A program made the translations under genes and the position numbers. Below the pieces are notes generated by a model. The model had not been told where the DNA came from and made no database searches. It saw only the letters and a list, made by a program, of their open reading frames with translations. From positions 96,001 through 160,000 of IMG/VR virus record IMGVR_UViG_3300027804_000038: a DNA stretch of 64,000 nucleotides. The stretch is one strand, 5' to 3'. Positions 4,478 through 53,998 of this stretch are shown here, piece after piece. This DNA is from a virus (lineage: Duplodnaviria > Caudoviricetes). Numbering within the stretch: the stretch's first letter is position 1; the number at the start of each line of letters is the position of its first letter.

Positions 4478-5074
4478 TTAAGATAATTTTTTAACTTTCA
4501 TTATTTTACCTTCAAAAATGTGTTTACCTACTCTAAATTGAAACGTTTCTTGGCTTTTAGTTTCTGATTCGGTAATAAGCCCATTTTCTCTCAAAATTTC
4601 TTCAACAGCTTCTTTAACCATTTTTTTTAAATCGCCGTTTGTACTTTGTTGATTAGAAGATGTTTTTTGAGGTTGACTATTTGGCGCTGATTTGTTATCA
4701 CCCATAAGTCTTGCAGCCTTTTCAATTAAATCGTTAGATAATGTTGGGGTGTATTGTTGTGGTTGATTTATTGGGTTTTCAATCATTAGTTTTTTAATTG
4801 CATCAGGTAATTTAGAATTTTTAATCCTTTCTTCAGTAACAACTAAAGGTTTTTGGACTGAAGAAACTGATTGAGATTCAGGTATATATTCTTCAGGTAT
4901 ATTAAATTTTGATGGTGCTGAATTAAAAGTTTCTAACTCAGGTGATGTTATGGTATTATGCGAATAATTTTCATTAACTCCTCCAGCGGCACCACTTCGA
5001 GGCATTTCATTATGTCTATCCATGATTTTTTTAGAAATCATTAATTTTTGTAAAAATTCATTTTCGTTTGTCAT
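4478..5074 (-). CDS. Hypothetical phage protein
   Basis: 198-aa ORF overlapping its neighbour (coupled start/stop); no recognised motif. Confidence 0.7.
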   Translation of the reverse strand: MTNENEFLQKLMISKKIMDRHNEMPRSGAAGGVNENYSHNTITSPELETFNSAPSKFNIPEEYIPESQSVSSVQKPLVVTEERIKNSKLPDAIKKLMIENPINQPQQYTPTLSNDLIEKAARLMGDNKSAPNSQPQKTSSNQQSTNGDLKKMVKEAVEEILRENGLITESETKSQETFQFRVGKHIFEGKIMKVKKLS

Positions 5075-5472
5075 ATCTCTTCAATATTTTCTAAGTCAAA
5101 TTTAGCACAAAGTTTAAGTCCAACCATACCTTTATCATCTGGGTTATATAATGGTCTTGGCTCATCAAAAGTGTTAGTCGGACTTACGTTATAACTACCA
5201 ATCCTATCTAATCTAAATAATCTCCATCCTGGTAATGGTTGTTCACCTTTTTGTGCGGTATATGATGCTCCCTCTCTTTCCCAAGCTCTAATAACTCTAT
5301 TTCCCGCCTTTGACACCCCAAAACAAAAAGGTTCAATAACTCTTAAACCCTTACCTCCATTATCTTCACCGTCATAGTATATGGTAACCAAATTTTTATT
5401 CTTAATAGAATTTGAAATTTGGTCCAGTGACTTTTCTAAGATAATTTGTTTTATGGTGTTGTAAAGCTTCAT
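5071..5472 (-). CDS. Stand-alone WYL-domain protein
   Basis: LVTIYY...RVIEPFCFG...IRAW...GWRLFRLDRI matches the WYL Sm/SH3-like signature; no HTH domain. Confidence 0.8.
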   Translation of the reverse strand: MKLYNTIKQIILEKSLDQISNSIKNKNLVTIYYDGEDNGGKGLRVIEPFCFGVSKAGNRVIRAWEREGASYTAQKGEQPLPGWRLFRLDRIGSYNVSPTNTFDEPRPLYNPDDKGMVGLKLCAKFDLENIEEI

Positions 5473-5762
5473 TATGATGCGGGATACTGATAAGGTTTGT
5501 CAGATTGATACTGATTTATTTTAATTTCGTTAACTCTTTCTAAAATATCGACAGAATTACCTCCATTTACCGAATCTAAGAAAACTCCTGTTCCTTTTCC
5601 TTTAATATCTCCGTCAGAGATTGCATCAGGATTAGTTGCTCCATAAGGAGGTTTTTGTTGGTTATAATCATTTTTAGTGATTAACGCTTTTCTAGCTTCA
5701 TTTGCAATTTGTGTCAACTTGTTATCGGGTTGATTCAAATCAATTGGTTCATAAGATGCCAT
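5472..5762 (-). CDS. Hypothetical phage protein
   Basis: 96-aa ORF tightly packed in the operon. Confidence 0.65.
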   Translation of the reverse strand: MASYEPIDLNQPDNKLTQIANEARKALITKNDYNQQKPPYGATNPDAISDGDIKGKGTGVFLDSVNGGNSVDILERVNEIKINQYQSDKPYQYPAS

Positions 5763-5763
5763 A

Positions 5764-6207
5764 TTAAATTATTTTTTTCATTAATTGGTTTATTATTTTT
5801 AATTCTTCAATAACTCTTTGTTCTAATCTTAAAGATGAATTATCATCCCAAGTGTCATGTCTTTCAGATGACTTTCTATGTCTTTCCGAAGGTCTTATAT
5901 CAGACCTTTTAGTATGTTTTTTTAAATGAGAATTTTCAATACCATTATCTTGTTTAATATCTTGCGACGTTGATATATTATCTCTTTCGTTTCCCAACTT
6001 AGTGTCAATCCAATTTTTAAAATACTGACCACCTAAGCTTTCAAGTTCCCCATTCTCCATTCTATTTTTTATACGTTTCAAATTTGAGTATGATATTTTT
6101 TTTGTGTCAATCAAATTTTTAATTGTAGTATTACTTGCATACTTTTCTAAAGATGAAAGTATACTATAGTCAATGTCATAATATCTACCGTATAAATTAT
6201 TATTCAC
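5764..6207 (-). CDS. Hypothetical phage protein
   Basis: 147-aa ORF overlapping the upstream gene by 8 nt. Confidence 0.65.
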   Translation of the reverse strand: MNNNLYGRYYDIDYSILSSLEKYASNTTIKNLIDTKKISYSNLKRIKNRMENGELESLGGQYFKNWIDTKLGNERDNISTSQDIKQDNGIENSHLKKHTKRSDIRPSERHRKSSERHDTWDDNSSLRLEQRVIEELKIINQLMKKII

Positions 6208-7027
6208 TTTTTTTTAGTATTTTAATTAATTCTGATGTTGAGATACCTTCTTTATCTGCTAATTTTTTTATTGATTCTAAGTTTTTTACTAATAATTTAC
6301 TTAAAGCTTTATTTTTTTTAGAAATATCTGTGTCTTTTGATTTTTTTCCTAGTAGTATATCTTCCACCATTTTAACCATTTTTTGTTTTCTTTCTTCATC
6401 TATTTTTTCTTTTTCAGATAAAGTTTGTTTTTTTGTCTTTTTAAAAGGATTTTTACCAAAGGCTCTAACTCTATCTGCGGCGTCTATAGGGTCTTCAACG
6501 CCAAGTTCATCCATGAACACTTCCATACTATCAGGACCGTTTAAGTCTTTAGTTTCTTCCCATCCAAAGGCATCCGAAAAATCAATCTCAGTAACAACGT
6601 TGTCATCATTATCATCAATACTCTCACCCCAATAAACTCGATAGCCTCTTGTTACAGGATTATTTGTTTGGTGACTCTGAGTCACTTCTTGGTCCATAGT
6701 TCCTTTAGGTGATATTTTAGGATTATATATTGGTATTTTAGAGCTTAAAAATGTTCCGTCATAATCTACTAGTTCGCCTAACTCTGACTTCAATTTTGAC
6801 AAATGTTTTTTAATTGAATCATTATCTTTAAGTTTTTTTTCTTTAAAAATTTTAGTTAGTTCTTTTTCAATTTTATTCTTATCTTTTTTATTAAATTTAA
6901 TTGAATCGTCTTTTTTTCTAGCTTCAGTTATAACATTGGAAACACTAAAATATAAGACAATATCATTTTTACCTTCTTTAAGATAAAAATAATAAGGACT
7001 TTTAAAATATTCTTTTCTAAATTCCAT
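6200..7027 (-). CDS. Hypothetical, charged protein (possible head-associated protein)
   Basis: 275-aa ORF, first gene of the leftward operon, preceded by TATTTATA on its strand. Confidence 0.7.
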   Translation of the reverse strand: MEFRKEYFKSPYYFYLKEGKNDIVLYFSVSNVITEARKKDDSIKFNKKDKNKIEKELTKIFKEKKLKDNDSIKKHLSKLKSELGELVDYDGTFLSSKIPIYNPKISPKGTMDQEVTQSHQTNNPVTRGYRVYWGESIDDNDDNVVTEIDFSDAFGWEETKDLNGPDSMEVFMDELGVEDPIDAADRVRAFGKNPFKKTKKQTLSEKEKIDEERKQKMVKMVEDILLGKKSKDTDISKKNKALSKLLVKNLESIKKLADKEGISTSELIKILKKSE

Positions 7028-7040
7028 TAAGTTTTTTATC

Positions 7041-7067
7041 TATAAATACATGGAAATGCGTATTTAT
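7041..7067. promoter_or_regulatory. Back-to-back TATTTAT late-promoter-like motifs
   Basis: TATTTATA on minus (7048-7041) before the ATG at 7027; TATTTAT on plus (7061-7067) before the in-frame ATG at 7074. Confidence 0.6.
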
Positions 7068-9200
7068 CATAAGATGTCACAACAGAATATAAGAGAATAT
7101 AATTTTAAAAAATGGTATTTAAGACCTGTGGGTCAAATGCTTGATATAAATTTAGCCTCAGACGAAAGAGACTATAATGAGGAAGTAATATTCTCAACAA
7201 AACTAATCGGACAAGACGATGGTAATCGATTACCAATTTACTTTGATTTAAATAATACAGGGTCTTCACAGCAGATTACCATAAATTATGGAGATTACAT
7301 TTTTGCAAACACTTTAGTTTCATTAAATTATTATAACCCTAATAATGAAAATTTAAATTGCTTAACTTCAAGTACTTTATGTGACATAGGATTAACAGGT
7401 ATTGATAACGGACTTGTGCCTGAAATGACTGGTGAGACCATTAATTTTACTATGGGATTATATACAGGTACCACTAAATGGAATAGGTATTATTTTGATA
7501 GAAGACAAAAATTAATTTCCATAACTGGATATACAAATTTACCAAATGAAAGATTTTCAGGAAACACAAAAGAAACAGTATATGATATGGTATCAAAAAC
7601 TGGAGCCACTGTTGGGTATTATAATCAATTATATGGTGGATTTTATCAAGGATTTTTTAAATTATTTGGATATGATTATGAAACATTTCCTGAACGGACT
7701 AATAAAGGATGGACTGTTGAAATGTTGCTTAGAGCTCGTCAGGAAGAAGAGTTTTCTCCCACATCCGCACAAACAACTTTAAATTTAACATATCCTGAAA
7801 ATAAAAATACTTTTTTTTACTTTGGGACAAGAGCGGAAAACAAATTTTATCATCACGCTTCAGGGTCTCCTTCTTCTGATACAGGGTACACTAGAGTTAC
7901 ATCATACTTGGAGGGTTGTCTAAAAACCTGTGCATGCTCAAATACAGGGGTTACAAATTCTAGATGTATTGAGGTTTACGAACCAATGTTATACACATCA
8001 GAAAGTAATTCAAATTGTAATTGTGTTTGTGAAACAACATCTGAAGTTCTTAATAATGATAAAAATCCCCTTTATGATTCGATGTCAAATTCATTTTCAT
8101 TGCGATTATCAGGTGACCCAAAAAATCCTAAAATTTGTGTTAAAGTTTTAACTTTTACAGGAGGATGTGTTACAACAGGGACTTGTCCTACAACTGGTAT
8201 AACATATCAAACAGGATATACTATAAATGAATATTGTTCATCTAATCAAATTTTTAATTATTGTGCGAATGAAAATTCTTTATTTTTAAACACTGAACAT
8301 TGGTTTTTAATTGATTGTGTATGGGAAAGAAATTCTTATTATGATACATGTGATTTATATTATAATGGTGGATTAGGACTAATATCTAAAAATGTATATG
8401 TGAATAGTTTATCTAATAATTCTGTGTTACTTATACAACCACCAATAACCCACACTGGTAATACTCCAGCTGAAACTGTTGAAATTGTAAATCTTAATGA
8501 AAGGTGGTTGATAGAAAGAGATGAAAGATTAGGTTCGTTAAAAATATTCGTAAACGGTAAATTATTTTATGTGATTAATGGATTTGAAGAAGTAATACCA
8601 AGGGGACTAAACACTGAAAAAGAAAAACAAATTGGTGTTCCGTTTAATATGTCGTGGGGAGGTGGTACACAGGGGTTAAGAGAAAGTTTAACTTTTTCTG
8701 GATGTCCAACAAGTTTAACAGGTAATACATACATACAAGACCCTGAATCAATGCCTAATCAAACATTATCAGGTACTTCTTTATCTGCCTTAACTACAAA
8801 TATATTAATAGAACCAACTTTTGGAGGTTCTTTTGATGGGGCAATATCTCAATTTAGAATGTACGTTGAACCTTTGAGTTATCCTGAGATATTACATAAT
8901 TTTGATATATTAAAAAATCAATTCGAATTGTTTGATTTCAGATGTCCTAATTGTCCAACAGGTTTAACCTATAATATAGGATATAGTGGTAATGGAACTT
9001 CAATATTATTTTCATCCACAACACTTAGTTCGTATACTTTTAATTTATCTTATTCGTCTGAGACCTACCCAAATAGATATTCGGTAGGTAGTGGATTAAC
9101 ATTTAATAATGTTATTACTCCACCATCGTATGAAAATTCATTTTATTATTTTTATTTTTCAGGGTTTGACCAAACTATAAAAGTTAATTTCACTATTTAA
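7050..9200 (+). CDS. Cys-rich virion-type protein with a LamG/concanavalin A-like domain (probable start 7074)
   Basis: GSLKIFVNG and FDGAISQFRMYVEPLSYPEILHNF are LamG-like; about 19 Cys; Thr/Gly-rich. Confidence 0.55.
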   Translation: MEMRIYHKMSQQNIREYNFKKWYLRPVGQMLDINLASDERDYNEEVIFSTKLIGQDDGNRLPIYFDLNNTGSSQQITINYGDYIFANTLVSLNYYNPNNENLNCLTSSTLCDIGLTGIDNGLVPEMTGETINFTMGLYTGTTKWNRYYFDRRQKLISITGYTNLPNERFSGNTKETVYDMVSKTGATVGYYNQLYGGFYQGFFKLFGYDYETFPERTNKGWTVEMLLRARQEEEFSPTSAQTTLNLTYPENKNTFFYFGTRAENKFYHHASGSPSSDTGYTRVTSYLEGCLKTCACSNTGVTNSRCIEVYEPMLYTSESNSNCNCVCETTSEVLNNDKNPLYDSMSNSFSLRLSGDPKNPKICVKVLTFTGGCVTTGTCPTTGITYQTGYTINEYCSSNQIFNYCANENSLFLNTEHWFLIDCVWERNSYYDTCDLYYNGGLGLISKNVYVNSLSNNSVLLIQPPITHTGNTPAETVEIVNLNERWLIERDERLGSLKIFVNGKLFYVINGFEEVIPRGLNTEKEKQIGVPFNMSWGGGTQGLRESLTFSGCPTSLTGNTYIQDPESMPNQTLSGTSLSALTTNILIEPTFGGSFDGAISQFRMYVEPLSYPEILHNFDILKNQFELFDFRCPNCPTGLTYNIGYSGNGTSILFSSTTLSSYTFNLSYSSETYPNRYSVGSGLTFNNVITPPSYENSFYYFYFSGFDQTIKVNFTI

Positions 9201-9239
9201 GAATTATTTATTTTTTTTATTTTTTAAAAAAATAAATAA

Positions 9240-10484
9240 ATGAAAATTTATATTCAAATTGCGTCATATCGTGACCCACAATTATTACCAACAATCGAAT
9301 CCGCATTAAAAAATGCAAAATTTCCTGAAAATTTAGTTTTTGGTATTGCCAGACAATATTCGGATGAGGATAAATTTGATAGGTTAGATGATTATTACAA
9401 AGATGATAGATTTAGAATAATTGATATACCTTATACTGAGTCAAAAGGAGCTTGTTGGGCTAGAAATAAAATACAACAATATTATAGCGGTGAAACCTAT
9501 ACATTACAAATTGATTCTCATATGAGATTTGCTGAAAATTGGGATTATGAGATGATTGAAATGGTAAAAGATTTACAATTAAAAGGATATAAAAAACCAT
9601 TATTAACGGGTTATGTTTCATCTTTTGACCCTGACAATGACCCCCAACTAAGGATACAAGAACCATGGAGAATGGTTTTTGATAGATTTATACCTGAAGG
9701 AGCAGTTTTCTTTTTACCTGAAACAATCCCAAATTGGAGAGATTTGAGTGGTCCTGTCCCATCAAGATTTTACTCCGCACATTTTTGTTTTACGGTTGGT
9801 GAATTCGCTAAAGAAGTCCAACATGACCCAGAATTTTATTTTCACGGTGAAGAAATTTCAATAGCCGCAAGAGCATATACACATGGTTACGATTTGTTTC
9901 ATCCTCATAAAGTTTTAATTTGGCACGAATACACTCGTAAGGGTAGAACAAAACAATGGGATGATGATAAAAATTGGGTTGAAAAAAATAATTTTTGTCA
10001 TAAGAAAAATCGTTCCCTTTTTGGAATGGACAATGAATCAGAAATGGACTTTGGTAAATACGGTTTTGGAACTGAAAGGTCACTAAGGGAATATGAAAAA
10101 TACTCAGGACTACTATTCTCAAAAAGAGCGGTTCAACAATATACAATAGACAAACACTATCCTCCAAATCCTTATAATTTTAATGATGAAGAAGAATGGA
10201 TGAACTCATTCTCAACAATATTTAAACATTGTATTGATGTATCATATAATCAAGTACCTGAAGACGATTACGATTTTTGGGTTGTTGCTTTTCACGATGA
10301 AAATGACGATACAATACATAGACAAGATATTGATGGAGAAGGCATTAAAATGTTAAAAAATGACCCTGATGGTTATTGTAAAATTTGGAGACAATTTAAT
10401 ACCGATAAAAAACCAAAGTATTGGGTTGTTTGGCCACACTCAATATCTAAAGGATGGTGTGATAGAATAACAGGTAATTTATAA
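9240..10484 (+). CDS. GT60-like polypeptide/hydroxyproline GlcNAc-transferase
   Basis: N-terminal IQIASYRD, GACWARN, LQIDSHMRF (DxH), YSAHFCF, FHGEE and WHEY are hallmarks of the Skp1 Gnt1/GT60 family. Confidence 0.8.
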   Translation: MKIYIQIASYRDPQLLPTIESALKNAKFPENLVFGIARQYSDEDKFDRLDDYYKDDRFRIIDIPYTESKGACWARNKIQQYYSGETYTLQIDSHMRFAENWDYEMIEMVKDLQLKGYKKPLLTGYVSSFDPDNDPQLRIQEPWRMVFDRFIPEGAVFFLPETIPNWRDLSGPVPSRFYSAHFCFTVGEFAKEVQHDPEFYFHGEEISIAARAYTHGYDLFHPHKVLIWHEYTRKGRTKQWDDDKNWVEKNNFCHKKNRSLFGMDNESEMDFGKYGFGTERSLREYEKYSGLLFSKRAVQQYTIDKHYPPNPYNFNDEEEWMNSFSTIFKHCIDVSYNQVPEDDYDFWVVAFHDENDDTIHRQDIDGEGIKMLKNDPDGYCKIWRQFNTDKKPKYWVVWPHSISKGWCDRITGNL

Positions 10485-10488
10485 TATT

Positions 10489-14257: not shown

Positions 14258-14274
14258 TTCTATATTTATGTAAT

Positions 14275-20080: not shown

Positions 20081-20788
20081 TTATCTTTTAGATTCTATTC
20101 TTTGTTTGTAAAGTTCGTTTACAAATTTCCAATTAATAACTTCCCAAAAATTATTTATATATTCGTCTCTTTTATTCTGATACTTTAAATAGTAAGCGTG
20201 TTCCCATAAATCAAGTCCTAATATTGGAAATCCACCTCTGTCAATTATGTTCATTAATGGATTATCTTGATTCGGTGTCGTCATAATTTTTAATGACCCG
20301 TTATCTTTTACAACTAACCATACCCATCCAGACCCAAATCTTTTTCTTGCTAATTCTTCAAATTTAGTTCTAAATTTTCTATAAGTCCCAAACTGTTGTT
20401 TTATTTTTTCTAATATAGGACCATTTGGTTGTTGGTAAGTTGGAGATAACATTTTCCAAAATAACGCATGGTTAAATGCTCCCCCCGCATTATTTCTTAT
20501 TGTTTCGTTATATTTGGATATTTGTTTTATAATATTTTCTAATTCAACATCACCATAGTCTTTTTTACGTAAAGCTGAATTTAATTTTTTTACATAACCC
20601 TTATAATGTCTTTGGTAATGTATTTTCATTGTTTCAGGGTCAATGAACCTACGTAAAGAAGAATATGAATACGGTAATCTATCAATACCGATGGTTTTCA
20701 TTTCAGTTAAGAAGAATTTTAAATCACTTTCCTCCTCACCATTAATTTGATTTAATAAACTTTCAGATAATAACTTTAAAGATTTCAT
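20081..20788 (-). CDS. sod: Mn/Fe superoxide dismutase (Mn-type or cambialistic signature) with a 29-aa N-terminal extension
   Basis: Ligands HYQRHY, NHALFW, DLWEHAYY; NNAGG and NQDNP indicate Mn type. ATG at 20788 (the track starts at a TTG, 20791). Confidence 0.92.
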   Translation of the reverse strand: MKSLKLLSESLLNQINGEEESDLKFFLTEMKTIGIDRLPYSYSSLRRFIDPETMKIHYQRHYKGYVKKLNSALRKKDYGDVELENIIKQISKYNETIRNNAGGAFNHALFWKMLSPTYQQPNGPILEKIKQQFGTYRKFRTKFEELARKRFGSGWVWLVVKDNGSLKIMTTPNQDNPLMNIIDRGGFPILGLDLWEHAYYLKYQNKRDEYINNFWEVINWKFVNELYKQRIESKR

Positions 20789-20801
20789 CAATAATAAATA
20801 C

Positions 20802-22562: not shown

Positions 22563-22591
22563 AATATAATTCATAATTAGATATTTATCAA
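22563..22591 (-). promoter_or_regulatory. Sigma70-like promoter for the SNF2 gene, overlapping an opposite-strand TATTTAT (22582-22588)
   Basis: Minus strand TTGATA (22591-22586), N17, TATATT (22568-22563). Confidence 0.55.
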
Positions 22592-23121: not shown

Positions 23122-23580
23122 ATGAAAATACTAATAACTGAAAGACAACAAAATTTAATTATTGAAAACGAATTAAATGATAACCCAAAAGAATTTTTGG
23201 GGGAAAGAGTTATGGTATATTATAATTTACATAAACACACGTTTTCTGTTACATATAAATCTAAAGTAATTATTCATGCGGATTACGTTAAATTAAAAGA
23301 TGTGGAATTTAGAGTTAGAGTTGGAGGTAAAGAAAGGGTTAGGTCTGAAAAAAGTAAAAATGTACATGCCTTTGTAATTGGTAATTTAGTTGATTATTGC
23401 GAATATCCTTGTGAAAATATGCCTAGTGAAAGTAACAGTAAGGTTGTAACGTATAATCCATACAAATATGATAGTTTTGTATATAAAGATACTGAAGAAC
23501 CTATATATCGTGCTAAAGAGGTTGATATGGTTAATCAAAAAAATAAATTATTTGTTATTAACGAAATTGTAAAATACTAA
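23122..23580 (+). CDS. Conserved-looking hypothetical phage protein (start probably 23122 rather than 23089)
   Basis: VYYNLHKHTFSV...KNVHAFVIG...VTYNPYKYDSF; N-terminal leader MKILITE. Confidence 0.65.
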   Translation: MKILITERQQNLIIENELNDNPKEFLGERVMVYYNLHKHTFSVTYKSKVIIHADYVKLKDVEFRVRVGGKERVRSEKSKNVHAFVIGNLVDYCEYPCENMPSESNSKVVTYNPYKYDSFVYKDTEEPIYRAKEVDMVNQKNKLFVINEIVKY

Positions 23581-24909: not shown

Positions 24910-27900
24910 ATGGCTACATCAAACAAAGTTTTTGTTTCTCCAGGTGTTTACACATCTGAAAGAGACTTATCATTTGTGGCACAAAGTGTTGGTGTAACAA
25001 CTTTAGGTATTGTTGGGGAGACACAAAAAGGACCCGCTTTTGAACCTATTTTTGTGACTAACTATGATGAGTTCCAATCGTATTTTGGAGGTACCTCACC
25101 TGAAAAATTTGTGAACACGCAAATACCTAAATATGAAGCGGCATATATTGCTAAATCATATTTACAACAATCTAACCAATTATTTGTAACAAGAATATTG
25201 GGGTTATCGGGATATGACGCTGGTCCGTCATGGTCTATTAAAACAATTGCGAATGTTGATTGTAATACAATAGGATTTAACGGTACTGCAACAACATCTT
25301 CATTTACTTTTACAGGAACAAGTGCGTCAACATCATCAATTACACTAACAAGTGTTCCATCCCCAATCTCATCTATTATTAATGATGTCTATACAGAATT
25401 TGATGGAGGAACTTCAAGTATTTCTGAGCAAATTCAAACTCAGTTATTGAATGTTATGAGGTCAACAGGTACTTCTGCAACTTCAATATACTACTTTGGA
25501 GCTATGTCAGGAGCGTCAATAACTGCGGCAATAGGGTCAGGATATACATCACCAACAAATGTTTATTCAGTATCCTCAATTACTGCAGAAACTATTGATT
25601 ACTGTTCAGGTTTAAATGACGCATGGTACTATTCACAGTTTAGTCCCGTTGGTACTACTTCATATTCAGGATTTTCGTTTAATACTTATGTCACTAAATT
25701 AGCTGCTTTAGGTACGCCAGGTCAATATTCAGGTATAGTAACAACTACTGTTAATACTTTTTCAGGTACCCCTTACACTAATTACAGTGATTTAGTAATT
25801 GCAACATTACGTTCAAGAGGTATTACTAATTACAGTTCAACACAATCAGGACCTTTATACCAAGTTAGTGCAACTTCGGCAGTTACTATGGTTTGTACAG
25901 GTTCTTATTCAGGAGTTAGTGAAAATCCGTTTAATACATTTGTAATTTCAGGTGTGACATACCAAGGTTCTAATTTCTCATTTGAGACTTCTTTTGAGAT
26001 TGCTAATTCTAATTATATTACTAAGGTATTTGGTTCAGGTAATTTTGATAAAGACAGAACAGAAGTTCCTTTGTTTGTTGAAGAGCGTTACCAAACCTTA
26101 TTACAATATGGTTATAATAAAGGATATATTAGAGGTTTAAGTTGTTCTTTAGAGTCTTTACCTGAAGCTAGAAACTTAGACACTTCATCAATAGCCAATT
26201 ATTTAGAAAGATATCAAACAGCATTCTCACCATGGGTAGTTTCAGAATTACGTGGTAATAAAGTTTATGAATTGTTTAGATTTGTAACAATATCTGACGG
26301 AGACGCTGCGAACAGAGAAGTTAAAGTTTCTTTAGCAAATATGTCATTTAATAACCAAACATTTGACGTAATAGTTAGAGATTATTATGATAACGACTCA
26401 AATCCTGTGGTACTTGAGAAATTCACTAACTGTACTATGGACCCTGATTTGAATAGTTATATAGCTAAAAAAATCGGTTCGACTGACGGTGAATACGCAA
26501 TACTTTCTAAGTATATAATGGTTGAAATGAACTATGATGCACCGATAGACGCACTTCCATGTGGTTTTGAAGGTTACATTATTAGAACTTATGGAGGAGC
26601 AACTTCACCATTCCCTGTATACAAAACTAAGTATGATTTCCCAGGTGAAGTAATTTATAACCCTCCATTTGGTAACACTAATGGTACTGACGATTCTGTT
26701 ACAAGTTCTGGAGATAATGTTAGAAGAACTTACTTAGGATTCTCAACTTCATTAGGGTTTGATTCTGACTTCTTTGAATATAAAGGTAAACAAGTTCCAA
26801 CTTCTTGGAGTTGTTCAGAACAAGATTACAGTAATTGGGGTGACTTAACTAAAGGTTTCCACATGGATAGTGGAGCAACTGCGGTTACGATATCTTCAAC
26901 ATACTCAACATCAGGTCAATCGGCCTTTGAAGTCGGAGATTCATCATTCTCTCAAGAACCAACAAGTTCAAGCGACCCATATTACAGACTTTATTCTCGT
27001 AAATTCACTGTGTGTGTTTACGGTGGTTTTGACGGATGGGATATCTATAGAGAATACAGAACAAATGAAGATAGATTCATCCTTGGTGAATCAGGATATT
27101 TAGCGGGAGCACAAGCAGGTTGTTCACCTTACACAAACGCAACTGGATGGGGGGCGTTTAAGAGAATCACTGTTGGTGATAACGTAGTTGATTGGGCAAA
27201 TACTGACTATTACGCTTACTTATTAGGTATTAGAAGTTTTGAAAATCCTGAAGTTACTAACATAAACGTTTTAGTTACTCCTGGTATTGACTTTGTTAAT
27301 AACTCAAACTTAACTGAGGCGACTATTGATATGGTTGAAAACGATAGAGCGGATTCAATCTATATTGTAACTAGTCCTGACTTTGACCTATACCAACCAT
27401 CAACTTCTATGGATAACTTAATCTATCCTCAAGAAGCGGTTGATAATTTAGAAACAACAGGTATAGATTCTAACTACACCGCAACTTACTATCCTTGGGT
27501 TCTTACTCGTGATACGGTTAATAACACTCAAATCTATATTCCAGCAACCGCAGAAGTTACAAGAAACTTGGCGTTAACTGACAATATTGCATTCCCTTGG
27601 TTCGCAACTGCGGGATACACAAGAGGTGTTGTAAACGCAATCAGAGCAAGAAAACGTTTAACTCAAGAAGATAGAGATACTCTATACAAAGGAAGAATTA
27701 ACCCGATTGCAACATTCAACGATGTTGGTACTGTAATATGGGGTAATAAAACACTTCAAATTAGAGAGTCGGCTCTTGATAGAATAAATGTTAGAAGATT
27801 GTTGTTACAAGCTCGTAAATTGATTTCAGCGGTGGCTGTAAGATTATTGTTTGAACAAAATGATAACGTAGTTAGACAACAATTTTTAGACTCAGTTAAT

Positions 27901-28140: not shown

Positions 28141-28155
28141 AATATATTTATGAAT

Positions 28156-28974
28156 ATGAAATTAATTATTGTTGAAGGATTTAGAGATGAAATAACCCCA
28201 GACATGAAGTATTATGCTTTTGATTGGGATGATAATATTATGTTCATGCCAACCAAAATAATTTTAAAAACCGAAGATGGTAGTGAAATTGGTATGGGGA
28301 CCGAAGATTTTGCCGAACATAGGGTAGATATTGGTAAAAATCCATTTGAATATAAAGGTGAAACAATTGTAGGATTTGCTGAAAATCCTTTTAGGAATTT
28401 TGGGGTGTCTGGAGATAAAAAATTTATAATTGATTCATTATTATCTAAAACAGGTCCAGCTTGGGATGATTTTGTTGAGTGTATTAACGGTGGTTCAATA
28501 TTCTCAATAATAACTGCTAGAGGACATTCACCAGAGACTTTAAAACAGTCAGTTAAAAACTTAATTGAGGTTAACTATAAAGGTCTTTCAAAAAAAGAAT
28601 TAGTTAAAAATTTAAGAAAATATAGAGAAATATATGGTGAAGAGGACATGTCAGATTTAGAACTTATAAATGAGTATCTTGATATGTGTAAATTTTATCC
28701 TGTAACGTATGGAGAAGGTTCCGCACAAAATCCTGAAGAAGGCAAAGTTAAGGCAATTAAAGAATTCTCAAAGTACGTGATGGAATTAGCGAAAGAATTA
28801 CACCAAACACCTTATTTTAAGAATGATGTATCTAACAATTTTATACCACAAATAGGATTTTCAGATGATGATTTAAGAAATTTAGCTAAGATGAAAAGTG
28901 CTTTAAAAGATGACCCAGAAAATATTGTACAATTATATTCAACACATGGAGGAGAAAAAAAGAAGTATGATTAA
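28156..28974 (+). CDS. HAD-superfamily phosphatase-like protein (start probably 28156)
   Basis: Motif I FDWDDN, motif II IITARG, motif III Lys (EGKVKA), motif IV GFSDDD. Confidence 0.65.
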   Translation: MKLIIVEGFRDEITPDMKYYAFDWDDNIMFMPTKIILKTEDGSEIGMGTEDFAEHRVDIGKNPFEYKGETIVGFAENPFRNFGVSGDKKFIIDSLLSKTGPAWDDFVECINGGSIFSIITARGHSPETLKQSVKNLIEVNYKGLSKKELVKNLRKYREIYGEEDMSDLELINEYLDMCKFYPVTYGEGSAQNPEEGKVKAIKEFSKYVMELAKELHQTPYFKNDVSNNFIPQIGFSDDDLRNLAKMKSALKDDPENIVQLYSTHGGEKKKYD

Positions 28975-43951: not shown

Positions 43952-43991
43952 TTTATTTAATTTATCGTATATTTATATAAAAAATAATAAC

Positions 43992-44216: not shown

Positions 44217-44220
44217 AAAA

Positions 44221-44883
44221 ATGGGAGTTTCTGAAAAAATTCTATTAGAAATAGAGAAATATAATAAGATTAATAAATATATCTCTGAGCAAGAGGCTCC
44301 TGCTGATATTCCGCCACCACCACCCGCAGGTGATTTACCTCCAGCTCCTGACGCAGGTGCAACACCTCCACCTCCAGCTGAAGGTGGTGCTGAGACACCT
44401 ACAACTACAGAACCACAACCTGTAGATGTTGCTTCTGACCCAGACGTTGAAAAGGTTGGTGAGGAAAAAGAAGAAGAAAATACTGAGGAATTAGAGATAA
44501 CTGATTTAGTTAAATCACAAAAAAATATTGAAGATAAACAAACTGAATATTTTGAAAATTTATTCAGTCAATTATCAAACCTTGAGGATAAGCTAAAAGA
44601 TATGGATTCTGTAATGGAAAGACTTAATAGTATTGAGTCAAAGATAGAAAACTACAGACCAAAAAGTGCTCAAGAAAAATTAGAATTAAGAAGTTTAGAT
44701 TCTGGTCCGTTTAACCAAAAATTAACAGATTTTTTCACAGACAAACAAGAAGACATCAAAAAAACAGGTAAAAACGAATACGTTTTAACTACCGATGATG
44801 TTGAAGATTTTTCACCTTCTGATATTAAAAATACTTTTACTCAGTACGGTGATAATAACGAATATATGTCAATTAAGAATTAA
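44221..44883 (+). CDS. Acidic, Pro-rich plus coiled-coil protein (possible scaffold/core protein)
   Basis: PPPPPAGDLPPAPDAGATPPPP, then heptad-like LSNLEDKLKDMDSVMERLNSIE. Confidence 0.6.
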   Translation: MGVSEKILLEIEKYNKINKYISEQEAPADIPPPPPAGDLPPAPDAGATPPPPAEGGAETPTTTEPQPVDVASDPDVEKVGEEKEEENTEELEITDLVKSQKNIEDKQTEYFENLFSQLSNLEDKLKDMDSVMERLNSIESKIENYRPKSAQEKLELRSLDSGPFNQKLTDFFTDKQEDIKKTGKNEYVLTTDDVEDFSPSDIKNTFTQYGDNNEYMSIKN

Positions 44884-44891
44884 TAACTTAT

Positions 44892-44920
44892 TTGACTTTT
44901 ACGGCTGACACTATTACTAT
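44892..44920 (+). promoter_or_regulatory. Sigma70-like promoter for the replication operon
   Basis: TTGACT (44892-44897), N17, TACTAT (44915-44920). Confidence 0.7.
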
Positions 44921-44950
44921 TGTTTATTAACTATTAATTTTTATATTTTT

Positions 44951-45793: not shown

Positions 45794-45799
45794 TTTATA

Positions 45800-45838
45800 A
45801 AAGGTTGGACACTATCATGGACAAAGTGTCCAACCTTT
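45800..45838. terminator. Perfect 14-bp inverted repeat between SSB and RecA (terminator/attenuator or operator)
   Basis: AAAGGTTGGACACT - 11 nt - AGTGTCCAACCTTT, followed by GTTATTTTT. Confidence 0.6.
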
Positions 45839-45877
45839 GTTATTTTTAATACAAACAATTTAAACGCATAGACACTT

Positions 45878-46876: not shown

Positions 46877-46886
46877 TTAATAGTTT

Positions 46887-47891: not shown

Positions 47892-47895
47892 TTTT

Positions 47896-48348
47896 ATGAA
47901 AGAACAGAATGACATTACAAAACTTGAGTTTTTAATGACCGTAAATGACAATTTCATTGTCCAAAGATTTTTTAATGTTAAGGATTACAATCCTAAGGCA
48001 AAAAACTCTAGAGAGTTGATTGATAACATTGAATATTTTATTGAAGAGTTGAAATATAATCTGAAAATGAAATCAGTTATTTATATGACAGACAATTCAT
48101 TTGAAATTATGGAAAACCCTGAAATTTTAGAAACCTCTTTTACAGACGGACCTGAAACTTTTAACCTTTATTTGAAACATAATGGAGTGACAATGTGTCA
48201 TTACACATTTGACGCTAAACCGTACCCCCCAAAGGTTAGATATACCGTAGACGTACGCCCATACCTAAAAGGTATCCTTAATTCATTGACTGACATTTTT
48301 TCAGATAAAAATTTAACATATAATTACCTAGGATACTCTTTGGTTTAA
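47896..48348 (+). CDS. Hypothetical protein in the replication operon
   Basis: 150-aa ORF between the exonuclease and the helicase. Confidence 0.7.
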   Translation: MKEQNDITKLEFLMTVNDNFIVQRFFNVKDYNPKAKNSRELIDNIEYFIEELKYNLKMKSVIYMTDNSFEIMENPEILETSFTDGPETFNLYLKHNGVTMCHYTFDAKPYPPKVRYTVDVRPYLKGILNSLTDIFSDKNLTYNYLGYSLV

Positions 48349-48375
48349 TAGTATTTAATTTTAAAAGAGGTAATT

Positions 48376-49749
48376 ATGGCGGACAAAAATTTTGATTATT
48401 TAGGAAATACTTTCCAACAACAACTTATAAATCAGATAGTTTCTGATAAGAATTTTGCACACTCAATTCTTGAAGTTTTAGAATCTAGTTATTTTGAAAA
48501 CAAGTATTATAAATTAATAATACAGATGATTAAAGAATACTATTCTAAATTTGAATGTCCCCCTAACTTTGAAACGCTTTTACAAATAGTTAAATCTGAG
48601 ATTAAACAAGAATTACTACTTAAAATAGTAATTGATACAATTAATGAAATTAAAAATGTATCTGAAGAAGGCGTAACATTTGTCCAAGAGAAGGCTCTGA
48701 AATTCTGTAAACAACAAGAACTTCAGAAGGTAATGACTAAAGCCCAAAAAATTATTGATTCTGGTGAGTTTGAAAATTATGACACACTTGAAGAAATGGT
48801 TAGAGAGGCTTTACAGGTTGGGGTGGTTGATAAAGATACAGGAGATGTATTTGAAAATTTGGACCAAGTTTTGGATGATGATTATAGACATCCAATACCT
48901 ATGGGAATTCCAGGTATTGACAATCTATTAAAGGGCGGACTAGCAAAAGGTGAAATAGGTGTGATACTCGCTCCAACGGGAGTAGGTAAAACAAGTTTAA
49001 CTACAAAGATTGCGAATCACGCATTTAATATGGGGTTCAATGTTTTACAGATATTTTTTGAGGATAACCCAAAGATTATACAAAGAAAACATTTTACACT
49101 TTGGACTGGAATTGCTCCTGATTTGTTAGGTGAACACAAAGAAGAGGTTTTGAATAAAGTTCGTGAAGTTGAAGAAAGGATGAAAAACAAGTTAATTTTG
49201 AAAAAACTTCCATCTGATACTCTTACAATGACACAAATTAAAAATCAAATTAGAAAGATGATAGCTGATGGAATTAAAATTGACGTTATTATCTTAGATT
49301 ATATTGATTGTGTAACACCTGAAAAAAATATGGATGACGAATGGAAATCCGAAGGTTCAGTAATGAGAGCTTTTGAAGCTATGTGTCACGAATTGCATAT
49401 CGCAGGTTGGACCGCAACACAAGGTAATAGAAGTTCAATTTCATCTGAAGTTGTAACAACAGACCAAATGGGGGGTTCAATTAAAAAGGCCCAAGTTGGT
49501 CACGTTATTATATCAGTGGCTAAAACATTACAACAAAAGGAACTTAAACTTGCGACAATTGCAATCACAAAATCACGTATCGGTAAGGACGGAGTAATTT
49601 TTGAAAATTGTAAATTTGACAATGAATTACTAGTTATTGATACCGAAAGTTCTATGACTTTCCTTGGGTTTGAAGAAAATAAGGAACAAAAGAATAGAGA
49701 TAGAATTAAAGAATTAATGGAGAAAAAAAGACAACAACAAAATAATTAA
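48376..49749 (+). CDS. Replicative DnaB-like helicase (gp41-like)
   Basis: [28 protein letters not shown]; GAGG Shine-Dalgarno upstream. Confidence 0.9.
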
Positions 49750-49753
49750 TAAT

Positions 49754-50701
49754 ATGGAAAAAATATTAGTAGAAAATCCAAATAGATTTGTTATCTTCCC
49801 AATTCAATATAACGATATATGGGAATATTATAAAATGCACCAAGCGGCTTTTTGGACCGCAGAAGAAATAGACTTAAGCGGTGACATTAGAGATTGGGAA
49901 AATTTATCAGAAAATGAACAATATTTTATCAAAAATGTTCTATCATTTTTCGCGGCTTCAGATGGAATCGTAAATGAAAATTTAGCTGAAAATTTTTACA
50001 GAGAAGTTCAATACCCCGAAGCTAAATTTTTCTATGGGATGCAACTTGCGATGGAAAACATTCATAGTTTAATGTATTCATTATTGATTGATACATACAT
50101 CTCAAATGAAGATGAAAAACATAAATGTTTTACCGCATTAGATAACCTACCTGCAGTACAGAAAAAAGCTAAATGGGCTTTGGATTGGATTGAAAATGCG
50201 TCATTCCAAGAGAGATTGGTGGCATTTGCGGCTGTTGAGGGTATCTTCTTTTCAGGTTCATTCTGTTCTATTTTCTGGTTGAAATCAAGAGGTATTATGC
50301 AAGGATTGTGTAATGCTAACGCTTTGATTTTCAAAGATGAAAACCTACACTGTGATTTTGCAATTCATTTGTTAAATAATCACGTTGAGAACAAACCAAG
50401 TGAAAAAAGAATTAAAGAAATTCTACTTTCAGCACTTGAGATTGAAAAAGAATTTATCACTGAATCACTACCTGTTTCTTTAATTGGTATGAACCAAAAC
50501 TTAATGAAACAATATCTTGAGTTTGTGGTTGATGGTTTACTTGTTAAAATGGGTTGTAAAAAACAATTTAACGTTGAACAACCATTTAAATTTATGGAAC
50601 AAATTGCCGTTGAAACAAAGGGTAATTTCTTTGAATCCAGAACAGTTGAATACCAAAAAGCAAAGTTAAATGAGACCCTCTCCTTTACTGATGACTTTTA
50701 A
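49754..50701 (+). CDS. nrdB: Class Ia ribonucleotide reductase beta subunit
   Basis: [24 protein letters not shown] (radical Tyr), [15 protein letters not shown]. Confidence 0.95.
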
Positions 50702-50720
50702 TTTACTATCTTTTTAAACT

Positions 50721-53153
50721 ATGATGTCACTAAGAATTAAAAAACGTAGCGGTGAAGACGCTTCCTTTAACCCGCAGAAAATTTATAATAGAATTAAGAG
50801 AGCCTCAAAAGGTCTTAACGTTAATTCTGATGAAATTTTTATTAAAGTAATAACCTCAGTACCAACTGAAGGTGTAATAACTACAAAAGAATTAGATAAG
50901 TTAATTTATGAAATTGCCGCGGCATTTACAGGTAGTCATCATGATTATTCTAGACTAGCTTCCTCAGTCGCTATCTCATCTTATCATAAAGAAACAGACT
51001 CAAGTTTCTCAAATGTAATGCATACTTTACATGTTGACGGAATCATTAATGATAAGTTAATGGAGATAATTGAAAACTATGGTCCGTCAAATATTGATAA
51101 TATTATTAATCATGATAATGACTATAACTTTGATTATTTTGCTTGGCGTTCATTACAAGAGATGTATCTTTTAAAATTACCAAATGGTAAAGTAGTTGAA
51201 AGACCCCAACACATGTATATGCGTGTCGCTCTTTGGATTACAAAATCATTTGAGGAGGCAGTTGAATATTATACTGCGTTATCTGAACAAAGAATTTCTC
51301 CCGCAACACCAATAATGATTAATGCGGGAACAAAAGTTCCACAGTTAGCTTCTTGTGTTTTAAAATATAATGATGAAGATTCTCGTAAAGGTCTATTAGA
51401 TACTATGAGAGATATATCTACTTACTCTTCAGATGCCGCAGGTATTGGACTTTGCATGTCAAATATTCGTAGTAAAGAAAGTAGAATTAATTCATCAGGT
51501 GGATTTGCAGGTGGTTTATTAAAGTATTTGAAGATTGTTAACGAGTCACTTCGTTTCTTTAATCAACAAGGTCGTAGACCAGGTTCTGCGGCAATCTATT
51601 TGGAACCTTGGCATAAAGATATCTTTGATTTGTTAGATATTAAAAAGAACACAGGTGCTGAGGAATTAAGAGCTCGTGATTTGTTTACCGCACTTTGGAT
51701 TCCCGATAATTTCATGAGAGCGGTTAAGAATAATGAAGATTGGTATTTGTTCTGTCCTAATGATATTAAGAAATCTGGTATTAAAGCATTACAAGAGTGT
51801 TATGGGGATGAATACGAATCTAACTACAATAAGGCTGTTGAATTAGGTATCGGTAAAAAAGTTAAGGCTCAAGAAATTTGGAATAAAATTATTGAATCTC
51901 AGATTGAAACAGGAGTTCCTTACTTATGTTCTAAAGATAATGCTAACAAAAAGACCAACCATCAAAATATAGGTGTAATCAAACAATCAAATCTTTGTAA
52001 TGAGATTTACCAATATACTGACGAAGATACTACTGCAATCTGCACATTATCATCTATGGTATTAAAAAACTTTGTTAAGGATGGAGAGTTTGACCACAAA
52101 TTACTATATGAAGAAACTCGTAAAGTAGTTAGAGCGTTAAATAAAGTTGTTGATATTAACAACTACTCAACAGAAAAAGGATTGAAAGGTGGATTAGCTC
52201 AAAGAGCAATTGCTATTGGAACTCAAGGACTTGCGGACGTATTTTATTTGATGGATTATATCTTCACATCTGATGAAGCTCGTAAGTTGAACAAAGACAT
52301 TTTTGAAACAATTTATTTCGCAGCAATCACTGAAAGTAATAAATTGTGTATTGATGGATTATACCAACCGTACTCTCACTTTGAAGGGTCACCAATGTCA
52401 CAAGGAGTATTCCAATTTGATATGTGGGGATTGAAAGAAGATGAGTTATCAGGAAGATGGCCTTGGGGAATTCTTAAACAAAATGTTAGTAAGTATGGTG
52501 TTTGTAACTCATTATTCACGGCTCAAATGCCTGTTGCATCTTCAGCTAAGATTACAGGGTCATATGAAATGACTGAACCAGCTCACTCAGCTATTTTTAA
52601 CAGACGTGTGGTTGGTGGTGAGATTATGATTGTTAACAAATACTTGATTAACGACTTTGAAAAAATTGGAATTTGGTGTGAGGATTTGAAGAACGAAATC
52701 ATTATGAACGAAGGTTCAATCCAAAACATCAACTTCAATAACTACCTTGACCAAGAAGATAAGAAGTACAATTCAAAAGTTAAAAGAATTGAACACTTGA
52801 TTAACAAGTATAAAACAATTTGGGAAATCTCACAAAAGTCATTGATTGAAATGGCCGCAGACAGAGCTCCGTTTATTGACCAATCACAATCAATGAATAT
52901 CTATATGGGTAACCCAACATTGTCAAAGATTTCATCATCACATTTTTACGGATGGGAAAAGGGATTAAAAACACTTTGTTATTATGTTAGAACAAAGGCA
53001 ATCTCAACAGGAGCGAAACATTTGGCGGTTGACATCTCAAAAGTACAAAAACCAAATCCAACACCTGAACCACCAAAGGTAGATTACTCTTATATGAATT
53101 TACCTCCAAAACCTGAAAATAGTGAATTTGATTGTTTTGGATGTTCATCTTAA
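50721..53153 (+). CDS. nrdA: Class Ia ribonucleotide reductase alpha subunit with ATP cone
   Basis: N-terminal IKKRSG cone, ASCVL, SNLCNEI, CTLSS, YYVR, C-terminal CFGC. Confidence 0.95.
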   Translation: MMSLRIKKRSGEDASFNPQKIYNRIKRASKGLNVNSDEIFIKVITSVPTEGVITTKELDKLIYEIAAAFTGSHHDYSRLASSVAISSYHKETDSSFSNVMHTLHVDGIINDKLMEIIENYGPSNIDNIINHDNDYNFDYFAWRSLQEMYLLKLPNGKVVERPQHMYMRVALWITKSFEEAVEYYTALSEQRISPATPIMINAGTKVPQLASCVLKYNDEDSRKGLLDTMRDISTYSSDAAGIGLCMSNIRSKESRINSSGGFAGGLLKYLKIVNESLRFFNQQGRRPGSAAIYLEPWHKDIFDLLDIKKNTGAEELRARDLFTALWIPDNFMRAVKNNEDWYLFCPNDIKKSGIKALQECYGDEYESNYNKAVELGIGKKVKAQEIWNKIIESQIETGVPYLCSKDNANKKTNHQNIGVIKQSNLCNEIYQYTDEDTTAICTLSSMVLKNFVKDGEFDHKLLYEETRKVVRALNKVVDINNYSTEKGLKGGLAQRAIAIGTQGLADVFYLMDYIFTSDEARKLNKDIFETIYFAAITESNKLCIDGLYQPYSHFEGSPMSQGVFQFDMWGLKEDELSGRWPWGILKQNVSKYGVCNSLFTAQMPVASSAKITGSYEMTEPAHSAIFNRRVVGGEIMIVNKYLINDFEKIGIWCEDLKNEIIMNEGSIQNINFNNYLDQEDKKYNSKVKRIEHLINKYKTIWEISQKSLIEMAADRAPFIDQSQSMNIYMGNPTLSKISSSHFYGWEKGLKTLCYYVRTKAISTGAKHLAVDISKVQKPNPTPEPPKVDYSYMNLPPKPENSEFDCFGCSS

Positions 53154-53168
53154 AATATCCGATGTGTT

Positions 53169-53197
53169 ATCCCGAGCTAGGTCGGGGTTTTTTATTT
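53169..53197 (+). terminator. Intrinsic terminator after nrdA
   Basis: ATCCCGA-GCTAGG-TCGGGGT followed by TTTTTATTTT. Confidence 0.8.
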
Positions 53198-53218
53198 TTA
53201 AGGTATTTATATGTTACC

Positions 53219-53998
53219 ATGGACAATTTAATTAGAGAAGAAATAGAAAAAATAAAAAAAATTATGATTTCAGAAGAACTGGTTCAAAAAAATGGATACA
53301 GCTCTTTAAAAGAAACCATTGATATTTTATCAAAAAAAAATAAAGTATTATTATTAAGTTGTTCCAATAGATTTAATTGGGATGAAGATAATATTGATGT
53401 ACCTAAATCTAAAATATTAGCATCATATATTAATGAAGAATTAAAAGACAATTCTGTTTTAATTGACATTACTGAATTAAAAATTTTCCCATGTGAAGGT
53501 AATGTTTCCAGAAAAGATGGTAATAGTTGTGGTATTATGAAATCATTATTAAAAGATGATAAAAAAAATCCATCAGGATACCATAGATGTTGGGCTAGTT
53601 TAAATAATAAAACAGATGAACTTTGGAAAATTTCTAAAGAACTTTTTGAGTCTGACACAGTGATTTTTTTTAGTTCAGTTAGATGGGGTCAAACAAATAT
53701 GTACTACCAAAATCTAATTGAAAGATTAACTTGGATTGAAAATAGACATGCGTCATTAGGTGAAAAAAATATTGTAGAAAATATTGAAAGTGGTTTCATA
53801 TGTGTGGGACAAAATTGGAACGGAGAAAACGTAACAGATACCCAAAAACAAGTTCATGAATTTTATGGGTTCAAACCGAATAATAAATTATATTGGAATT
53901 GGCAATACACCAAAGACAAAAACGATGAAACTTTAAAATCCTATAAAGAAAGTTATAAAAAATTCTATAAAGATTTCAAAATAGATGAAGAAGACTGA
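53219..53998 (+). CDS. Flavodoxin-like FMN-binding protein (NADPH-dependent FMN reductase / Isf-like), start probably 53219
   Basis: KVLLLSCSNR, PCEG...SC...HRCW, SDTVIFFSSVRWG, LIERL; TATTTAT at 53204-53210. Confidence 0.7.
   Translation: MDNLIREEIEKIKKIMISEELVQKNGYSSLKETIDILSKKNKVLLLSCSNRFNWDEDNIDVPKSKILASYINEELKDNSVLIDITELKIFPCEGNVSRKDGNSCGIMKSLLKDDKKNPSGYHRCWASLNNKTDELWKISKELFESDTVIFFSSVRWGQTNMYYQNLIERLTWIENRHASLGEKNIVENIESGFICVGQNWNGENVTDTQKQVHEFYGFKPNNKLYWNWQYTKDKNDETLKSYKESYKKFYKDFKIDEED

Follow-up and report, generated by a model that had tools for sequence, protein, structure and literature searches.

Short N-terminal leaders ending in glutamate are carried by a large set of proteins of an uncultured T4-like jumbo myovirus (294 kb), putatively of freshwater Bacteroidota, and by analogy to phage T4 we regard it as slightly better than an even bet that they are capsid-targeting propeptides clipped off by the prohead protease. 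Our analysis starts from a 64,000-nt stretch (the window), which covers positions 96001-160000 of the 293,850-bp virus record IMGVR_UViG_3300027804_000038 (30% G+C). A preliminary description of the window had listed six proteins with such leaders: a superoxide dismutase (SOD), a WYL-domain protein, a HAD-like protein, a flavoprotein and the products of the open reading frames (ORFs) 23122 and 44221. All six quoted N-termini are present in the sequence. The leader set is much larger than these six, spanning about 40-55 ORFs genome-wide, and the leaders are translated and under peptide-level selection.

A genome-wide family of Glu-ending leaders

The six N-termini had been grouped by a shared I/L-x-E end, and in this form the proposal does not by itself go beyond chance: of the 213 ORFs of at least 150 aa, 69 (32%) have the bare motif among their first 20 residues, vs 21-27% of internal windows. 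A genome scan with a motif profile had been suggested as a check; a narrow hidden Markov model (HMM) built from eight LTESDLxRIVKRVIxE leaders gave significant matches to its own seeds only. Pfam and PHROG searches of the small leader proteins returned no family model covering the leader. Because no single profile could cover leader classes this short and diverse, we used pairwise N-terminal scores with controls instead. N-terminal 28-mers were compared without gaps (BLOSUM62) in 49,105 ORF pairs lacking paralogy beyond residue 40, and internal segments, C-terminal segments and same-composition shuffled N-termini served as controls. Scores of at least 40 were reached by 74 N-terminal pairs vs 4-5 in the controls, and scores of at least 45 by 40 pairs vs 0-2. 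At a score of at least 38, the N-termini form one connected component of 54 candidates, a number that includes alternative in-frame Met starts of single ORFs. Within this main component 38 proteins have at least two non-paralogous partners, and 18 further proteins link to at least four core members at a decoy rate of ~1%.

The leaders fall into several classes, namely MKYLITESQ(L/I), which is found on many small proteins, MKKvvRLTESDLxRIVKRVIxE(E/N/S), M(S/G)K(R/K)F(I/V)(I/L)TE(E/S)EKxxI..LYG, hydrophobic-hydrophobic-x-E-(I/V)-x-(R/K)-(I/F)-(K/R)-E-I-(M/L)-G..hydrophobic-x-E and MNLQExIRKVLKEE. The motif begins exactly at an in-frame Met, even where the longest ORF opens further upstream. Within each ortholog family tested, the leader-terminal Glu is either invariant or kept in at least 90% of the orthologs. 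Identical leader residues are encoded by differing codons in 44% of cases vs 50% at random choice; since the codons differ nearly as at random, it is the peptide and not a nucleotide signal that is conserved. The proteins behind the leaders comprise SOD, polyphosphate kinase 2 (PPK2), phage lysozyme, M23 peptidase, a tail-lysozyme-like protein, LRR, L5 gp82-like and WYL proteins and many orphans, and thus include folds of clearly independent origin. PPK2 is encoded outside the window:

Genome 25806-26906: polyphosphate kinase 2 (PF03976, E 2e-72) with a ~120-residue N-terminal extension that opens with the class-D leader MRKLLTEVEKIKEIMGVSLNES; own TATTTAT.

A second, separate component of the similarity network is an ordinary signal-peptide family. 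About seven phage proteins at genome 238-275 kb open with a hydrophobic signal peptide of the classical type, which ends in (F/L)SQ or a similar sequence, and from these N-termini are predicted to be secreted or lipoprotein-like, distinct from the Glu-ending leaders.

The leader genes are also tied to a promoter-like element. Of all 7-mers, TATTTAT shows the strongest enrichment in front of ORFs (10-fold over background) and is found 10-25 nt ahead of the start codon. It heads every virion operon in the window (neck, sheath, tube, tape measure, baseplate and BppU-like) and precedes the terminase, portal, protease and scaffold genes, whereas none was found ahead of replication or nucleotide-metabolism genes in the window. 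Due to this distribution we read it as a late promoter element. It lies within 45 nt of 22/38 leader genes vs 70/352 other ORFs (odds ratio 5.5, Fisher p = 1.6e-6), and most remaining leader genes stand behind a TATTTAT-bearing gene. The assignments made for the window hold as well: SOD, HAD and flavoprotein genes have their own TATTTAT, and the genes for the WYL protein and ORF 44221 are located in TATTTAT-led operons. ORF 23122 likewise belongs to such an operon.

Counted from its first base, TATTTAT occurs at two preferred distances from the start codon, 10-14 and 20-24 nt; examples in the window are 20794-20788 (-), 28145-28158 (+) and 53204-53221 (+). As the shorter class leaves ~5 nt before the ATG, there is no room for a Shine-Dalgarno site, and many late mRNAs would, from this spacing, be leaderless or nearly so. 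The dUTPase at 1930-2517 (-) has a ~50-residue N-terminal extension with LLES and LKELES, but is probably outside the late leader set because no TATTTAT lies upstream.

Putative capsid protein propeptide and prohead protease

A T4-type head module is located at genome 59-72 kb, outside the window. It encodes the large terminase (TerL), a T4-type portal (PF07230, E 5e-76), a 236-aa protein rich in L/I-x-E between portal and protease, a very acidic scaffold-like protein of 484 aa and a gp23-like major capsid protein (MCP) of 609 aa. Two further genes matter for the fate of the leaders:

Genome 66961-67680: gp21-family prohead protease (Peptidase_S77; PF03420, E 6.6e-26 to 6e-25, above the cut-off).
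Genome 52130-54175 (-): two-ring Clp/Hsp100-type AAA+ ATPase, ClpB/ClpA-like (AAA, AAA_lid_9, AAA_2, ClpB_D2-small), directly upstream of the head module.

Residues 1-60 of the MCP are nearly identical across five relatives with near-complete genomes (242-309 kb), at an overall MCP identity of 75-83%. This conserved N-terminus ends with (H/F)-L-I-N-E and is followed by a variable Ser/Ala/Gly stretch and then by the conserved fold. In the HMMER alignment residue 93 of T4 gp23 corresponds to MCP residue 72, so that the T4 cleavage position, Glu65, maps to the L-I-N-E region. From this sequence boundary we infer that the MCP is matured after Glu60. The four-residue pattern at the end of this MCP segment also closes many leaders (VINE, IINE, LVNE, VISE, VIKE), and in close relatives of SOD it recurs where leader and enzyme meet (FFINE|A).

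The protease itself aligns to the T4 gp21 structure 5JBL (E 1.9e-16). Its His96 and Ser159 align with Ala of the crystallised chain, residues which we take, partly by inference, to be inactivating mutations of that chain. Conserved hydrophobic-x-E sites are present near both ends of the protease (ILIE19 and ENLxE213, ~19 residues from the N-terminus and ~26 from the C-terminus) and are kept in six related phages. Such sites would fit self-processing at both ends and resemble the gp21 autoprocessing discussed previously (PMC9026906, PMC5694885). In the 236-aa portal-protease protein, L/I-x-E occurs 11 times vs 4.3 expected (rank 3/300); overall, enrichment of this motif in head proteins contributes little to the argument.

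Six leader proteins of the window

The window itself combines virion and replication genes. It encodes a long tail sheath, a tube, a tape-measure-like protein, gp25- and gp6-like baseplate proteins and very large baseplate/fibre proteins, together with a family B DNA polymerase, gp32-like, UvsX-like, RNase H-like and DnaB-like proteins and a class I ribonucleotide reductase. The features of the six leader genes are as follows:

20081-20788 (-): Fe/Mn superoxide dismutase with leader, 235 aa (Sod_Fe_N E 1.8e-21, Sod_Fe_C E 9.8e-41).
20702-20788 (-): SOD leader, residues 1-29, with two hydrophobic-x-Glu sites, LSE9 and LTE29.
20794-20800 (-): TATTTAT, 5 nt ahead of the SOD ATG.
23122-23580 (+): L5 gp82-like protein (ORF 23122), 152 aa (PF25735).
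23122-23166 (+): ORF 23122 leader, residues 1-15, MKILITE RQQNLIIE, then N.
22582-22588: TATTTAT of the operon with ORF 23122.
5071-5472 (-): stand-alone WYL-domain protein, 133 aa (Pfam WYL 21.6 bits, just under the cut-off of 21.8).
5434-5472 (-): WYL leader, residues 1-13, MKLYNTIKQIILE, then K.
7042-7048 (-): TATTTAT heading the five-gene operon from 7027 to 4478 with the WYL gene.
53219-53998 (+): flavodoxin/FMN-reductase-like protein, 259 aa (Atlas neighbours with PF03358).
53219-53275 (+): flavoprotein leader, residues 1-19, ending ISE, MDNLIREEIEKIKKIMISE, then E.
53204-53210 (+): TATTTAT ahead of the flavoprotein gene, start 8 nt downstream.
53168-53200, approximate (+): G+C-rich hairpin with T run, terminator-like, between nrdA and the flavoprotein promoter.
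44221-44883 (+): ORF 44221, 220 aa, with conserved N-terminal helix, Pro-rich linker and coiled-coil-like C-terminal half.
44221-44289 (+): ORF 44221 leader, residues 1-23, ..KILLE..YISE, then Q.
43970-43976: TATTTAT of the operon with ORF 44221.
28156-28974 (+): HAD-like phosphatase candidate, 272 aa from the second ATG, DxD motif FDWDDN.
28156-28176 (+): HAD leader, residues 1-7, MKLIIVE, then G.
28145-28151 (+): TATTTAT ahead of the HAD gene.

The description of these proteins as unrelated enzymes is correct for SOD; the HAD-like and flavodoxin/FMN-reductase-like assignments are leads, the WYL protein is predicted to have a ligand-binding fold, and ORF 23122 and ORF 44221 are without known activity.

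For SOD, the preliminary description had stated that the leader ends where the enzyme fold starts, and this is confirmed by alignment to solved cellular enzymes. Residue 5 of solved cellular Fe/Mn SODs (~200 residues) aligns to phage residue 35 (best E 4.7e-63 over the full length), and hence the phage enzyme has 30 extra N-terminal residues (MKSLKLLSE...FFLTE|MKTIG). The leader is outside the enzyme fold and absent from solved cellular SODs, in line, for this protein, with a phage-specific leader. The extension is kept in more than 100 metagenomic relatives with 62-97% identity, and in the leaders of 19/19 aligned relatives only Met1 and the junction Glu29 are invariant, the junction having the context hydrophobic-hydrophobic-x-E followed by (M/A)-K-x-I-G-I. 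Near relatives begin with MKYLNIITES or MKSLNLITEN, sequences of the MKYLITES class. Two other start sites were rejected. A start at Met30 is ruled out by Ala in the closest relatives, by the 29 conserved upstream residues and by the TATTTAT 5 nt before the first ATG, and the longest ORF opens with a TTG one codon ahead of the true start, ATG 20788, as indicated by orthologs and TATTTAT spacing. Some SOD relatives (P0100, P0111, P0090, P0031) carry an N-terminal zincin-like (HEWxHE) domain or a ~150-residue C-terminal domain, and the linkers of these fused proteins bear hydrophobic-x-Glu sites in a polyprotein-like arrangement. A complex prediction of the prohead protease with SOD residues 1-45 scored 0.04 and gave no answer, being evidence neither way. 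Taken together, we consider it reasonably likely that the SOD leader is a clipped capsid-targeting propeptide.

The same grade applies to ORF 23122, which by its N-terminal scores is clearly a member of the main component: 15 partners score at least 33 vs ~1 expected, and all orthologs begin at the same Met. Many orthologs (e.g. L274, L277, L285) have a CxxC...CxxC zinc-ribbon insert between leader and core, which is missing from the copy in the window; this position of the insert marks the leader as a separate module.

The AlphaFold model of the WYL protein matches the WYL domains of PafBC, BrxR, CapW and DriD with a probability of 1.00, although model confidence is moderate (mean pLDDT 70), so that the protein is, according to the model, a ligand-binding WYL fold. 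Across 11 viral orthologs its leader keeps the pattern MKLYNxhKxhhxE (h, hydrophobic), Glu13 being invariant, and residues 1-12 are unpacked in the model (pLDDT <50). Six links connect this leader to the core set at a decoy rate of ~1%, and by this statistic it belongs to the main family. The operon with the WYL gene closes with a gene at 4478-5074 (-), whose product has a leader-like N-terminus (..FLQKLMISKKIMD..) and a leader-like internal stretch, KKMVKEAVEEILRENGLITE|SETK, 26 residues before the C-terminal end. By analogy to T4 Alt, this latter stretch may be a C-terminal propeptide.

The flavoprotein leader stands ~40 residues ahead of the core KVLLLSCS, and 80 viral orthologs retain a 20-residue leader, e.g. 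MSNIIQEEIEKIRKMMLLEE and MNLQENIQRIREMMIAEE; relatives are named 'multimeric flavodoxin WrbA' by JGI. When an HMM of this leader was run against the six-frame translation of the genome, the top 25 matches included MNLQEQISRMQSMM (twice), MNLQEHI(R/K)K (twice) and the PPK2 leader, and most matches align from Met. The flavoprotein leader thus seems to fit into a smaller class, with a weaker link than those of ORF 23122 and the WYL protein. Its gene adjoins nrdAB, yet is set apart by the hairpin and its own TATTTAT; the hairpin looks like an intrinsic terminator parting early/middle from late transcription. For both the WYL protein and the flavoprotein, the chances that the leader is a capsid-targeting propeptide are, in our view, evenly balanced.

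In ORF 44221, KILEEIxRYxxINxYIxEQ is conserved in ~80 viral loci and the Pro/Ala-rich linker behind it is hypervariable. It may serve in the core or as a structural protein instead of being cargo, which lowers the chance of a cargo-type propeptide to somewhat less than even. We also considered ORF 44221 as a paralog of a 422-aa Pro-rich protein encoded next to the head module, but the weak local match (E 0.001) did not establish this.

The HAD-like protein is the weakest of the six cases. Its top fold matches are weak, though all belong to the HAD superfamily, and for both the HAD-like and the flavodoxin-like protein the homologues found were close relatives on viral or uncharacterised metagenome contigs only. 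Close orthologs begin with MK-x-x-(L/I)-x-E-G-F, with Glu7 kept in at least 90% of 21 orthologs, and distant ones have leaders of 15-20 residues, such as MFKKVLKEFLEEKLLRE, before the same (x-E-)G-F. Residues 1-16 are unstructured in the AlphaFold model (mean pLDDT 80). A start at ATG 28150 was rejected in favour of 28156, since orthologs lack the first Met and TATTTAT overlaps 28150; the orthologs begin at the second Met, and TATTTAT ends 5 nt upstream of it. For this 7-residue leader the propeptide reading is doubtful, more so than for ORF 44221.

Possible destination of the leader proteins

If the favoured explanation is right, propeptides of ~7-30 residues would have been placed on ~40-55 otherwise unrelated late proteins. 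Each would be an amphipathic segment straight after Met, which ends in, and often also contains, a hydrophobic-hydrophobic-x-Glu site. As for the T4 capsid targeting sequence (CTS), the propeptide would most likely dock the protein onto the scaffolding core during prohead assembly. The gp21-type protease would then cut after the leader Glu, as predicted for the MCP after L-I-N-E60, and the mature protein would be retained in the head until it exits together with the DNA.

The CTS of phage T4 reportedly goes back to Mullaney and Black in 1996. It is present on the internal proteins IPI, IPII and IPIII and on Alt, and is removed by the gp21 prohead protease (PMC9026906, PMC3012670). The ten N-terminal residues of IPIII are enough for a foreign protein to be taken into the head (PMC9026906, PMC3012670, PMC5694885), and targeting and processing are separable, as Asp in place of the terminal Glu (position 10) blocks cutting but not loading (PMC9026906). 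The authors of this review suggested that the CTS is a general route for T4-like phages to load diverse proteins (PMC9026906). Several cleavage sites per propeptide are known from T4 gp23, phiKZ and SPN3US (PMC5694885; also PMC9026906, PMC3012670). Our leaders resemble the T4 CTS in their position straight after Met, in the hydrophobic-x-Glu end, in being common to unrelated proteins and in late-gene expression, and the phage shares with T4 a gp21-family protease, a gp23-like MCP with a putative Glu-ending propeptide and T4-type portal and terminase. In contrast, T4 has a handful of carriers of the near-identical 10-mer MKTYQEFIAE (PMC8442874), whereas here ~40-55 carriers in at least five classes are known from sequence alone. 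The leaders are also mostly longer (13-30 residues) and often bipartite with two Glu sites, and the cargo includes enzymes of cellular origin (SOD, PPK2, flavodoxin-like and HAD-like) and wall hydrolases. The T4 analogy drawn in the preliminary description is borne out with respect to protease, putative MCP propeptide, peptide conservation, (nearly) invariant Glu, absence of the SOD leader from cellular SODs and late motif, but not with respect to one common motif, as there are several classes.

In phiKZ, 201phi2-1 and SPN3US, inner-body or ejection proteins have propeptides cut at S/A-x-E by a gp21-related protease (PMC5694885, PMC10052503). These are likewise jumbo phages and, as predicted for ours, have many packaged proteins, multi-site propeptides, paralogs with conserved N-termini and cleavage after Glu. 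However, propeptides of the phiKZ group are mostly longer than 100 residues with a small P3 residue, and there is no T4-like scaffold; the leaders described here are short with hydrophobic P3 and P4, as in T4. Encapsulins offer a further parallel, as their short, portable cargo-loading peptides direct unrelated enzymes, including redox enzymes, into an HK97-fold shell. These peptides are usually C-terminal and uncleaved, and the shell is not viral. In the literature we found no paper describing a Glu-ending leader set at this scale.

Several observations weigh against capsid-targeting propeptides. For the leader proteins, cleavage and packaging are deduced only, by analogy. No significant similarity to the remaining leaders of the genome was obtained for those of SOD, the HAD-like protein and ORF 44221, the latter two being conserved but idiosyncratic. 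Among the six, a leader in common with unrelated proteins is clear for ORF 23122 and the WYL protein and weaker for the flavoprotein. The bare I/L-x-E motif is near chance in this AT-rich genome; NrdB in the window, for example, begins with MEKILVE, and six bare-motif matches among ~60 genes would be expected by chance. There are at least five leader classes, mostly longer than the near-identical 10-mers of T4, and no leader resembles the T4 sequence beyond Met-Lys and the hydrophobic-x-Glu end, which counts against homology but not against the same mode of action. Low pLDDT at N-termini is common and unspecific, L/I-x-E in the acidic scaffold is not above the expectation from composition, and the leader-bearing wall hydrolases could be tail or baseplate parts instead of head cargo.

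Among the other explanations, it is unlikely, though less so than the remaining two, that the leaders are genuine portable tags meant for another destination or another reader, either in tail, baseplate or neck assembly or through recognition by the Clp/Hsp100-type ATPase, and that the terminal Glu serves another purpose. The ATPase adjoins the head module and could act as a reader of N-terminal tags; moreover, SOD is encoded beside a neck gene, HAD between sheath and tube and ORF 23122 before the sheath, and lysozyme and M23 peptidase would suit tail-tip enzymes. Yet the recognised tail, sheath, tube and baseplate proteins have no such leader, and with two hydrophobic residues ahead of an invariant Glu, the leader end corresponds to both the T4-type protease site and the end of the MCP propeptide. 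To our knowledge, there is also no Clp recognition motif that looks like these leaders, which weighs against the ATPase as reader.

It is less likely still that the prohead protease or some other protease cuts the leaders while their function is that of an inhibitory or regulatory pro-segment, or of a linker in a polyprotein, with the enzymes working late in the infected cell. This would be in line with the SOD leader forming an internal linker between the zincin-like domain and SOD in P0100 and P0111, where it works away from the N-terminus. Nevertheless, the T4 gp21 protease is active inside the prohead, and its substrates must consequently be there (PMC5694885), and it is not obvious why small cargo (40-100 residues) would require a pro-segment. 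Lowest of all we rate the possibility that nothing functional is shared and that the similarity reflects AT-rich N-terminal composition (Met-Lys followed by Ile/Leu/Lys/Glu-rich helices) together with hidden paralogy of fast-evolving small proteins. I/L-x-E is found in one third of all N-termini, many leader proteins are small and unannotated, and three of the six window proteins lack a significant link to other leaders. Against this, same-composition shuffled N-termini yield 4 high-scoring pairs vs the 74 observed, the leaders sit on folds of independent origin, the SOD leader is invariant only at Met1 and the junction Glu, and leader genes are tied to the late promoter motif.

Taken further, the capsid-targeting explanation leads to a freshwater T4-like jumbo phage lineage that loads ~50 proteins into its capsid by interchangeable, often bipartite propeptides, which we regard as possible but rather less than an even chance. 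The cargo would include MnSOD, a flavodoxin-like reductase, PPK2, a HAD phosphatase, a stand-alone WYL sensor domain and wall hydrolases, and such a packaged proteome would reach the scale of the phiKZ inner body while being built with T4 CTS logic. WYL domains are the sensors in host BREX and CBASS regulators. We can only speculate that SOD acts against an oxidative burst, that the free WYL domain is a decoy for host WYL sensors and that PPK2 and the reductase support early metabolism.

If the leaders are indeed capsid addresses, the proteins injected with the DNA would become predictable from sequence for a large group of uncultured jumbo phages, including their first-minute tools for counter-defence and host takeover. 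The predicted cargo is unusual in that SOD, PPK2, the flavodoxin-like reductase and the free WYL domain each suggest a function in early infection. Besides, foreign proteins could then be loaded into T4-like capsids with these leaders as new tags of greater length.

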